Of a stretch of 38,650 bases of DNA, positions 32,325 through 36,700 are shown in pieces. The DNA is taken from NCBI GenBank assembly GCA_014905635.1, contig JABVCE010000040.1, positions 186,001 to 224,650 of the forward strand, written 5' to 3'. Source of the DNA: Scenedesmus sp. PABB004 (lineage: Eukaryota). Each line of letters opens with the position of its first letter. Position 1 is the stretch's first letter. The translations under genes were made by a program, and so were the position numbers. Below the pieces are notes generated by a model. It ran no database searches. It saw nothing but the letters and a program-made list of their open reading frames with translations, and had not been told where the DNA came from.

Positions 32325-33369
32325 ATGGCCATCCACGACTCCCGAGGTGCGCGGGGGCCCGGGGCCGCGCCCACGGGGCCTGGCCGGGCACGCATGCGCG
32401 CGCCGGCGCCGGCGCCCGCTGCTCACCGCCGTGCCGCCGCCGGCGCCCGCCCGCAGTGTGAGCCACCGCGCGGCCACGCGCGCCGCAGCCGCCGCGCGCG
32501 CCCCACGGGGCGCGACCGCCCGCGCGCGCGCGCGCGCCGCGCCGTCCGCGCCGCACCGCCCGCACCTGCACGCGCCGCCCGCGCCGCCCGCGGCTGCCCG
32601 CGCTGCTGCTCGCAGGATCCTGGTGCTCGCCCTCATGTTCTCCACGGGCGTGCTGCTGCAGATCCTGGTGCGCGTGCCCCCGCGCTCGCAGCAGGGCTGC
32701 CGCCGCGTCTCGCTGCCGTCGCCCGCCCCGACCGCCGCCCCGACCGCCGCCGCGCCCGCGCGTCCGCGCCGCGCCGCCGCGCGCGCGCGCAGGGCTGCGT
32801 GCTGTGGCGCAACTGGTGGCCCATGCTCACGGGGCTCATGTACGTCCTCGTGCCCATGCCCTACCTCTTCTTCGGCTCCGCCGGCGACGCGTACGGCGCG
32901 CTCGCGAGCGGGTGCGGCGCGGCGCGCCGCGCGCGGGGCGCCCGGCCCTGCGCACGCCCGGCCGCAGCGCGCCAGGCCCGCGCCGCCGCACTCAACCCCC
33001 CTGAACCCTGCGCCCGGGGCGCAGGTGGGTCGACGCCGGCAAGTTCCTCACCGGCTTCAGCGCGGTCGGGTCGATCGCCATCCCCGCCATCCTCGCGCAC
33101 GCGCAGGTGCGCGGCGCGCCCGCGCCGCTGCGACGCCGCGCCGCAGGCGGCCCGGGCGCCGCCCCGCACGCGCGTGTCCCGACCCCCGCCCCACCCGCCC
33201 GCCCGCCCGCCTGGCCGCCCCGCCCCGCCCCGCCACCGCGCCGCGGCGACCCCGCCAGGTCATCACCGGCGGTGCACTGATCATGGAGCTCGCGGCCGCG
33301 GGCGTGCTCGGCGCAACGGTGCTGACCTATGACTACTTCTCCACGCGCGACTCGCTCGCCTACTTCTGA
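32325..33369 (+). CDS. VPS55: Vacuolar protein sorting 55 (VPS55 / LEPROT-OB-RGRP family)
   Basis: Exons: 32325-32346, 32457 (1 nt), 32616-32667, 32793-32911, 33025-33106, 33259-33369. Product MAIHDSRVILVLALMFSTGVLLQILGCVLWRNWWPMLTGLMYVLVPMPYLFFG..WVDAGKFLTGFSAVGSIAIPAILAHAQVITGGA matches the Vps55 family. Confidence 0.93.
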
Positions 33370-33744: not shown

Positions 33745-36700
33745 ATGGGCTTCGTGCACAGCCTCAACGAGCGCGTGGCGGGCAGCGTGGTGAGTCCCGG
33801 GCGCGCGTGCGGGCGCGCGCGGGCGCCTCGTGCGCGGCGAGGGCTTGCTGAGCAGCAGTAATCGTCCGATGCCCGACCGGGCGCTCCGCGCCGCCTGACG
33901 CCCGCGCGCCGCGCCACCTAGGTGGGACGCTACTTCCAGATCAAGGAGCGCGGGAGCACGTTCTCCACCGAGGTCCGCGCCGGCTTCGTGACTTTCCTGA
34001 CGAGTGAGCGCATTTTCGCCGCCTCGCGCCGCCCTCCGGCCCCGGCGCGGCGCCTCGCCCGGCGCACGCGTGCCTAGAGCTCCAGGGGCGACTGCGGGGC
34101 GCGCCGTCGGGCCGCCAGGACACCTCGTCGGGCGCGGCAGCAGCACGGGGGTGCTGCCACGGGGGCCCCTCACCCCGTCCTGCGCCGCCCGCAGCTGCGT
34201 ACATCCTGGCCGTCAACTCCGGCATCCTCAGCGACACCGGCGGCACGTGCAGCGATGCCGACTGCACGGTGCGCCGCGCTCCGCCGCCGCTGCCACGCTC
34301 CGCCGCCGCTGCCGCGCTGCGCCGCGCGTCCCGACGCGCCGCCGCCGCCCTGCCCGGCGCGCCCCGCCGCTGCACGCGCGCAGGGCCCCAAGAAGGGCCA
34401 GCCCGGCTGCCGCTTCGACGACCCCGGCTTCCAGGCCTGCGTGGTGCGCGAGGCCGCCCGGCTCGCCCGCGCCACATGCCCGCCGCGCCCCCGCTCGCGC
34501 GCCCCTGTTCGCACGCGCGCCCCCGCTCACACGCCCCCGCGCCGCGCCGCGCGCCGCGCCGCGCGCGCCGCGCAGCAAGAGGTGCGGCGCAGCCTGATCA
34601 GCGCGACCGCGGCCACGTCGCTCATGGCCTGCTTCCTCATGGGCGCGGTCGCCAACCTGCCCCTCGCGGTGGTGAGCAGCGGGACCCCCCCCCCACAAAC
34701 ACACACACGGCAGGCCCCGCAGCCGACCAGGCCCCGCGCCGCGCGGCCGGCCCCTCGACCCAGACCCCCCCTGTGCTGCGCCGCGCCGCGCGGCCGTGCG
34801 CTCGGCCCACACGGCCCGTCGGCAGCGCCCCGTCCCCTGCTAAACCCTGCCCCGCCCCGCCCCCTAAACCCCGCCCCGCCAGGCGCCGGGCATGGGCATC
34901 AACGCCTACTTTGCCTACACCGTGGTCGGCTTCTACGGCACCGGCATGATCACGTACCAGGCGCGTTGAGGCTGGTCAACGCGCACTGCTGGTCAACGCA
35001 GCGCGCGTTGACCAGCGCGGCTGAACGGCCGACGCCGCCGGCGCGGCCCCGCCGCCCCGCCGCCGCGGCCGCGCGCCAAGCCGCCGCTGCGCCGCGCCGC
35101 CTGCACCCTGGCCCTGACCGCCGCAGGAGGCGCTGGCCGCGGTGTTCATCGAGGGCTGGATCTTCATCGCCATCTCGCTCACAGGCGCGCCCAGCACGCA
35201 CAGCGCGGCGCGCGCAGCACGCGCAGCGCGGTCCCCGGCGCGCGCAGCGCGGCGCCGGCACGCGCCCGCGCCGACGCCGCCGCGCGCCGCCCGCCGCCGC
35301 GCGCCCGCGCGCCCGCCCCCCCCCCCCCCCCCCCCCCCCAGGCGTGCGTGGGCGGCTGGTGAGCCTGGTGCCCAAGTCGATCATGCTCGCCACCGCGGGC
35401 GGCATTGGGCTCTTCCTGGTGGGTTGTAGGGGCCTAGGGTTTGAGAGGAGGGGTTTAGAGGGCTCGGGCTGGGCTTGATTGAGGGCTCGGGGGCAGGGGC
35501 GCGAGGCGGCGCCGGCGCGGCGCGCCGGGGCGGGGGCGCCCGGGCGGGCGCGCCGCGGGTGGCGACTTGATGTGAAGCGTGAGCGCTCCACCTGTGTCGC
35601 GCACCCGGCCGCGCCTCGCCCGGCGCGGCGCCCTCGCGCCGCGCCGCGGCGGGCGGCGGGCCGCGTCCCCCTCCCCGCACCCACACACACACGCGCGCAC
35701 GTGTCGCGCGCGAACTCACGCCCTCCCCCTGTTCACGCACCAACCAAAACCCCAGGCCTTCATCGGGCTGCAGAACAGCGAGGGCCTCGGCCTCGTGACC
35801 TACAACTCAGCCACGCTCGTCACGCTCGGTGCGGCGCGCGCGCTGCACGCCGCGCCGCCGCCGCGCGCGCGGCCCGCCGCCGCGCTCGCCGCTGCGCCCC
35901 CGTCCCCCTCCTCCTCTCTTGATCGTTCTCTCGACAACACACCAACATAACACAAACATAACACGTCAAATAACGCCCCGTCCTGCCCCGCCCCGCAGGC
36001 GGGTGCCCCGCGGCCAACCGCGTGTACCAGTACTCCATCGCCGACCCCACCCCCGCCGCGATCTGCGTGCCCGACCCCGACACGGGGCTGCCGAGCGTGG
36101 AGCTCGGCCCGCCGTCGTCCACCTACATGTGCAAGGCATGTGCAAGGCAGCGCGGCGGCGGGGGGGGGGGGGGGGGCTTTGGGTTGACGGCGCGTCCACG
36201 GGCGAGCCCCGGGCGGGCGCTGCCAGCGGGGGCGCGCGCAGGGGGCGCCGGGCGCGCTAGTTGCCGGGTCCACATGCTGACCCATGTGCGCGGCAATCAG
36301 CGCGCCCGGCGCCCTCGGCCGCGCGCTGCCCCTCCCCACCCCTCCCTCTATCCCCTCCCCGCGCCACAGTCGCGCACGCGCCTCCGCTCACCCCGTCGCG
36401 CGGGCGCGGCGCGGCGCGGCGCGGCGCGCAGGGCAAGCGCCTGCACCTGGCGTCGCTGTGGCTGGGCGTGGCTGGCATGCTGGTGATGGTCATGCTCATG
36501 GCCCGCAAGTGAGGCGGCCGTGGTTTAGGGTTTAGGGTTCATGGTGCTGGGGCGGGCCAGGGCTTTGGCGCTGGGGCGCCAGCGGGCGGGCGCGTGCCGC
36601 GGCGCGCCGCCGCCTGCGCGCCCGCCCCGCGCGCCGCGCCGTGGCCGTCGCGGGGCTCAGGTTCAGCTCCCTCAAACCCTGACATTCAAACCCCGCCACC

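Follow-up and report, generated by a model that had tools for sequence, protein, structure and literature searches.

A putative single-nucleotide exon in the VPS55 gene of a chlorophycean green alga

Does a single nucleotide form an exon of its own in the VPS55 gene of a green alga? The window, by which we mean the whole stretch of 38,650 bases that was analysed, contains a VPS55 gene in which a direct join of the first exon to the next large exon is out of frame, and a lone T (T32457) lies between an AG and a GT in the interval that separates the two. We consider T32457 to be the second, single-nucleotide exon of a six-exon VPS55 gene, with a probability of about 85% on the evidence of sequence comparison. 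The T would accordingly be part of the mature mRNA of this alga. One-base exons represent the extreme limit of the spliceosome and very few of them are known.

When joined by coordinates, the gene consists of six exons and five introns, all of the GT-AG type, with a coding sequence of 387 nt that ends in a TGA stop codon (33367-33369) and a Vps55 product of 128 amino acids. The features are listed below; hyphens in short motifs mark exon-intron boundaries.

Exon 1: 32325..32346, plus strand, 22 nt; ATG at 32325, peptide MAIHDSR, then G as base one of codon 8.
Intron 1: 32347..32456, plus strand, 110 nt, phase 1, GTGCGC...CAG.
Exon 2, predicted one-nucleotide exon: 32457..32457, plus strand, T, middle base of codon 8; YAG-T-GTR in 21 of 21 distinct homologous intervals.
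Intron 2: 32458..32615, plus strand, 158 nt, phase 2, GTGAGC...CAG, ending at 32615.
Exon 3: 32616..32667, plus strand, 52 nt; G of codon 8 plus 17 codons (ILVLALMF...LLQIL), start of transmembrane helix 1.
Intron 3: 32668..32792, plus strand, 125 nt, GTGCGC...CAG.
Exon 4: 32793..32911, plus strand, 119 nt; conserved core NWWPML...PMPYLFFG, match to PF04133 (E = 3.6e-9).
Intron 4: 32912..33024, plus strand, 113 nt, GTGCGG...CAG.
Exon 5: 33025..33106, plus strand, 82 nt; match to PF04133 (E = 1.3e-6).
Intron 5: 33107..33258, plus strand, 152 nt, GTGCGC...CAG.
Exon 6: 33259..33369, plus strand, 111 nt including TGA; aligns with the C-termini of homologues.

Membership of the Vps55 family is indicated by the PF04133 matches of exons 4 and 5 and by the presence of this domain in every close homologue; a Pfam search gave no match for exon 6. 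The ATG at 32325 is the earliest ATG of its frame. Exon 1 ends in ...CGA G, i.e. in phase 1, with GTGCGC from 32347 onwards, and exon 3 opens with G ATC CTG GTG from 32616, which needs phase 2. T32457 is preceded by CAG (32454-32456) and followed by GTGAGC (32458-32463), and its inclusion builds codon 8 from three exons as G (exon 1), T and G (exon 3), which encodes Val. In this gene model the frame of the coding sequence is intact only with T32457, and omission of this base leads to a frameshift. Intron 1 contains a branch-like CTCAC (32422-32426) whose A is located 31 nt upstream of the acceptor G, and the acceptor AG at 32455-32456 is the first AG downstream of CTCAC. The donor hexamer of intron 1 (GTGCGC) is identical to the donors of introns 3 and 5, and that of intron 4 (GTGCGG) differs at the last base only. 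A preliminary description of this DNA had pointed out the out-of-frame join and the AG-T-GT in between, and each of its sequence statements is correct to the base. Its remark that introns of 110 and 158 nt are of typical size agrees with the remaining three introns (125, 113, and 152 nt).

The weight of the frame argument depends on the base composition of this DNA. The GC content of the window is approximately 80% (77-83% in each 2-kb bin), and open reading frames of 560-590 codons span introns on both strands because stop codons are so rare. In this genome, arguments from ORFs or from frame carry unusually little weight. Seventy single-intron GT/GC-AG paths (7 with GT donors, 63 with GC donors) lead from either upstream ATG to the frame of exon 3, all of them open because the sequence is nearly without stop codons, and all 70 give N-termini of a length other than that of the homologues. 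The decision therefore rests on the homologues. The splice-site motif as such is not enriched across the window: two copies of YAGNGTRAG were found in the 38,650 bases on both strands, compared to a mean of 1.56 in dinucleotide shuffles, and AGTGT makes up 6 of 117 AGNGT matches. Since window-wide enrichment is lacking, only the position of the motif is informative; approximately 0.005 copies are expected on the same strand of the 269-nt interval between exon 1 and exon 3.

A protein search using the exon 4 peptide as a query identified 34 proteins at E values up to 0.01, 31 of which carry PF04133. Full open reading frames on Logan contigs of approximately 1 kb, and proteins with TSA or MMETSP labels, were taken as transcript-type homologues; the Logan-derived proteins are presumably RNA-based, judging from their uninterrupted reading frames on contigs of this size. 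The N-terminus of the transcript-type homologues reads Met-Ala-x-His/Gln-Asp-x-Arg-Val followed by the exon 3 peptide, and the seven residues MAIHDSR encoded by exon 1 are found N-terminally among them as well. The codon G+T+G (Val) and the N-terminus predicted in the preliminary description are thus those of the transcript-type homologues. In the alignment of 13 full-length proteins of this type exactly one residue stands between Arg and Ile/Leu, there is no length variation at this position, and residue 8 is Val in 12 proteins and Leu in one. The Pfam Vps55 profile begins at residue 9 of homologue P0010, i.e. just after the codon-8 residue. Along its entire length of 128 residues the spliced product shares 90.6% identity with P0010 (TSA-labelled), with P0001, and with P0003; the identity is approximately 80% to proteins of Volvocales and 77-79% to proteins of Selenastraceae, and the host is therefore a chlorophycean green alga. 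More distant homologues have Ala, Thr or Gly at the codon-8 residue, so the rule of a T at the middle base is limited to green-lineage sequences.

Related genomic loci were collected by an alignment-based scan of JGI metagenome contigs. The scan returned 80 loci, with an exon-3-like peptide present in 60 and absent in 20. Counting the window, 41 sequences have a phase-2 acceptor, which leaves a single base in front of the first Ile/Leu/Val codon. The exon 1 pattern, defined as Met...Asp-x-Arg or the plant-type Met-Ala-Met-Thr-Val-Glu with a phase 1 end at GT, was matched in 27 of these 41, and removal of identical intervals left 21 distinct ones (16 algal, 4 grass, and the window). YAG-T-GTR is present between the two exons in all 21 intervals, which come from interrelated loci and represent far fewer than 21 independent events. 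The comparison of VPS55 loci for AG-N-GT at the same codon, as proposed in the preliminary description, thereby gave AG-T-GT throughout these 21 intervals, grasses included. A single site of the YAG-T-GTR type was found in 19 of the 21 intervals, and two grass loci have an additional CAG-A-GTG; the background density in the same loci, with any middle base allowed, is 211 sites per 184,319 nt. On the acceptor side of the 16 algal sites the AG at -2/-1 is invariant and is preceded by C (15) or T (1) at -3. On the donor side the GT is invariant, followed by G (9) or A (7) at +3, A (11) or C (5) at +4, G in all 16 at +5 and T (11) or C (5) at +6. The 14 phase-2 sequences without an exon 1 match comprise four loci in which the T is fused to exon 1, seven plant-like loci and three that are cut at the contig end. 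Two of the seven plant-like loci were inspected (L040 and L049), and both contain CAG-T-GTAAGT.

The loci with the microexon form cover clearly different lineages. One of them (L033) is 99.1% identical to a Coccomyxa subellipsoidea protein, four (L027-L030) are 90.8% identical to an Elliptochloris protein, and a third clade resembles the transcript-type protein P0028. The grass loci share about 90-96% identity with one rice protein, and in four of them (L017, L018, L056, L066) exon 1 ends as G-GT and is followed by CAG-T-GTAAG(T/C) and then by CAG-G plus a Leu codon at the aligned position. The distance from the codon-8 residue to the downstream Gln of LLQ is 15 positions in plant as well as algal proteins. 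For the chlorophyte microexon form, a same-species pair of locus and transcript was not obtained; the best pair was L068 and P0028 at 89.6% identity.

The bases on either side of the T vary between clades and the encoded residue varies with them. The P0028-like clade has C as the last base of exon 1 (T in L039) and A as the first base of exon 3, which gives CTA or TTA, i.e. Leu, with the T in place; P0028 itself has Leu at the codon-8 residue and its first 25 residues equal the prediction from L068. Two fused arrangements were also observed. The T is fused to exon 1 (GT-GTGAGT) in L002, L004, and L026/L031, with a donor of the type that follows the microexon, and it is fused to the next large exon, leaving a single phase-1 intron (AG-TC or AG-TT), in L019-L024, L038, and L054. 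The last of these is Chlamydomonas-like, with 94% identity to the C. reinhardtii protein. Such fused forms are as expected if one of the two flanking introns was lost. Together, the covariation and both apparent intron-loss products support a T that is spliced in, and the microexon with its two fused forms may represent a natural series in which the intron before or the intron after a one-base exon was lost.

The reading that competes best assumes one canonical intron of 142 nt, with its donor at 32347 and a CAG acceptor that ends at 32488, by which T32457 is skipped and 32489-32615 is translated into 43 Ala/Arg/Pro-rich residues between Arg7 and Ile9. Such an intron is of the GT-AG type, leaves the frame open without stops and is the probable choice of a gene predictor; the insertion is nevertheless present in none of the 13 aligned full-length homologues, 12 of which have Val here instead, and the 43 residues have the composition of a translated GC-rich intron. 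Its acceptor (AG at 32487-32488) is also not the first AG past CTCAC, which is the one at 32455-32456, and the CAG-T-GTGAGC arrangement, kept in 21 of 21 intervals, would be left without explanation. We regard this 142-nt intron as very unlikely.

An assembly indel, with the CCC run at 32341-32343 as one candidate site, would allow exon 1 to join 32616 directly and remove the need for a microexon. Very GC-rich sequence is hard to assemble, which speaks for an error of this kind, but the repaired reading (Asp-Ser-Pro-Arg-Ile-Leu) forfeits the Ser-Arg-Val common to the homologues, turns a near-consensus AG-T-GTGAG in the right interval into a coincidence against the expectation of about 0.005 given above, and does not account for the same three-part codon in independently assembled relatives. 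These points make an indel extremely improbable. Sequence run X1, a freshwater metagenome that probably consists of DNA, contained 0.05 of the sampled words and gave no cover at 32353-32505; the X1 pieces placed on the window are from relatives or are GC-rich low-complexity matches. A non-consensus GC donor inside intron 1 (e.g. 32351 joined to 32615, giving Arg-Gly-Ala-Ile) is extremely improbable too: GC donors are used in 63 of the 70 open paths and patched N-termini of such a kind occur in the models of Monoraphidium minutum (P0037) and Haematococcus (P0048), but these GC 'donors' fit no donor consensus while all five VPS55 introns start with GTG (four GTGCG, one GTGAG), and their products and the transcript-type homologues disagree in length or residue.

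In the 3' flank of VPS55, one X1 contig joins 33377 to 33665 and skips 287 bases. The ends of the skipped segment are CC..GC instead of GT-AG, and the join is probably an indel difference in a related organism. A second gene begins approximately 380 nt downstream of the VPS55 stop (window positions 33746-34002, plus strand), with an ATG at 33746, a first exon followed by GTGAGT from 33791 and a further exon (33922-34002) followed by GTGAGC. We take its N-terminal peptide to resemble an AzgA-type purine permease; the 27-amino-acid exon gave no Pfam match.

In gene models derived from genomic DNA, of prokaryote style as well as eukaryotic, the protein breaks exactly at codon 8: either the residues in front of the Ile/Leu of exon 3 are foreign or the model starts at the internal Met. 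Such breaks are found in the models of Raphidocelis, both Monoraphidium species, Coccomyxa, Elliptochloris, Apatococcus, Klebsormidium, Marchantia, and rice, and further models with deviant N-termini are those of Haematococcus, Symbiochloris, Ostreobium, Ulva, Mesotaenium, and Spirogloea (deviant set: P0016, P0037, P0040, P0048, P0049, P0052, P0060, P0063, P0065, P0067, P0069, P0078, P0088, P0097, P0103, P0105, and P0113). Misannotation due to a missed one-base exon is the likely common origin of these deviant algal and streptophyte N-termini, with Coccomyxa (L033) as the case in which the DNA was compared. Many green-algal VPS55 models thus appear to have a wrong N-terminus that deviates right at codon 8, in agreement with the expectation in the preliminary description that gene predictors would miss the exon. 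The gene models of Volvocales have the correct N-terminus, as would be expected of an ordinary intron. According to the available part of Yu et al. (2022; PMC8831610), a wrong VPS55 N-terminus alters how many membrane helices are predicted and in which orientation.

How could a single base be included? Exon definition could not recognise an exon of this size, and simultaneous engagement of the acceptor AG and the donor GT that touch T32457 is implausible. The introns of 110 and 158 nt are therefore most likely removed sequentially. In this model, T32457 is a constitutive one-base exon whose flanking introns are removed one after the other via intron definition, in a manner that resembles recursive splicing. 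We infer an ordered removal, for which two routes can be envisaged. If intron 2 is removed first, the resulting CAG-TG... would then serve as the acceptor for intron 1; if intron 1 is removed first, the resulting ...G T-GTGAGC would present an ordinary donor. The T itself is accounted for by coding, as a T at the middle base makes the residue with which the first transmembrane helix starts hydrophobic (Val, Leu or Ile).

Apparently partially spliced sequences were encountered among the grass-like contigs, which are from metagenomes or metatranscriptomes. In L014 and L015, which look like VPS55 transcripts, intron 2 and all later introns are removed and CAG-TG is joined, with an intron 1 of 600-700 nt still in place; in L017 and L018 the first three introns are kept and the later ones are removed. 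This comparison suggests that intron 2 is removed ahead of intron 1, or that an isoform retains intron 1, and it also fits the intron-retention isoforms reported in the available part of Yu et al. (PMC8831610). It is doubtful that a timing or dosage control, exerted by the obligatory two-step splicing through a detained intron pair, is the reason why the exon persists.

Recursive splice sites, or ratchet points, are zero-nucleotide exons of long animal introns. They resemble the arrangement at T32457 in that an acceptor AG stands beside a donor GT, so that the steps must be sequential. They differ from it in that one coding base would be retained in the mRNA here and in that the introns are short and need no subdivision. 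T32457 is not a zero-nucleotide exon, in which AG and GT are juxtaposed and nothing is kept, as the T lies between the two and is needed for the frame.

The VPS55 microexon of land plants, which the preliminary description had mentioned, is indeed published: Yu et al. (2022; PMC8831610) describe, in the part of the article available, a 1-nt microexon (MEPmodeler cluster 2) that is conserved in land plants, unannotated everywhere and followed by a GTRAGT donor. C. reinhardtii was left out of the clustering according to the same part of the article, and algae are absent from its Fig. 5 source data. In the available part of Feng et al. (2024; PMC11096116) a 1-bp Vps55 microexon is reported for Zygnema, and the number of microexon clusters is given as fewer than five for other streptophyte algae and as zero for Chlorophyta. 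The chlorophytes sampled there are C. reinhardtii and Volvox carteri, both Volvocales, and the section is headed 'Microexons evolved during plant terrestrialization'. In the full-text literature searched, 'VPS55' and 'microexon' were found together only in Yu 2022 and Feng 2024 (and its preprint), and a chlorophyte VPS55 one-base exon was not found; the supplementary figures of Yu et al. might include algae.

With some reserve we regard the G-T-N split of VPS55 as the ancestral state of all green plants. On this view the one-base exon would predate the split of chlorophytes and streptophytes and survive in Trebouxiophyceae, Chlorophyceae, Zygnematophyceae, and land plants, and several lineages, including the model Volvocales, would have lost one flanking intron, by which the T became fused. 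The same AG-T-GT in this chlorophycean, in the Coccomyxa locus and in other algal lineages makes an ancestral origin testable. If it is true, the VPS55 exon would be among the oldest known microexons, and for this cluster the statements 'none in Chlorophyta' and 'microexons evolved during terrestrialization' would be overturned.

Other one-base exons have been described in unrelated genes. The available text on Fusarium CYP621A (PMC12940212) reports a 1-nt exon that is likewise needed for the correct ORF; it differs in being from a fungus and an unrelated gene and was apparently inferred from gene assembly. In Arabidopsis APC11 a single-nucleotide exon (A) was described by Guo and Liu (2015; PMC4674806). 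As far as the available part of that article goes, this exon resembles the one proposed here in that it is a constitutive coding exon of 1 nt, is flanked by two GT-AG introns and was missed by annotation, and intron definition with recursive, one-by-one removal was proposed for it; it differs in the gene, in the nucleotide (A) and in a sequence that is unrelated.

The closest counterpart is the VPS55 microexon of land plants and Zygnema. In both cases the host gene encodes a Pfam Vps55 protein, the same codon (usually Val) is divided as first base-T-third base, a YAG acceptor and a GTRAG-type donor flank the T, and the annotated N-termini are wrong or short. A second in-frame isoform is described for basal land plants in the part of that literature available, whereas here skipping or retention would lead only to frameshifts, and no such isoform is evident. 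The land-plant donor is GTRAGT and the one here is GTGAGC, alike at five of six positions; one grass locus also has GTAAGC. Intron 1 of grass VPS55 measures 600-700 nt, compared to flanking introns of 110 and 158 nt with a GC content of approximately 80% here. The lineage differs as well, the host being a chlorophycean alga, and T32457 is very probably the known VPS55 one-base exon in a new and deeper lineage, which would move the origin of the exon deeper.
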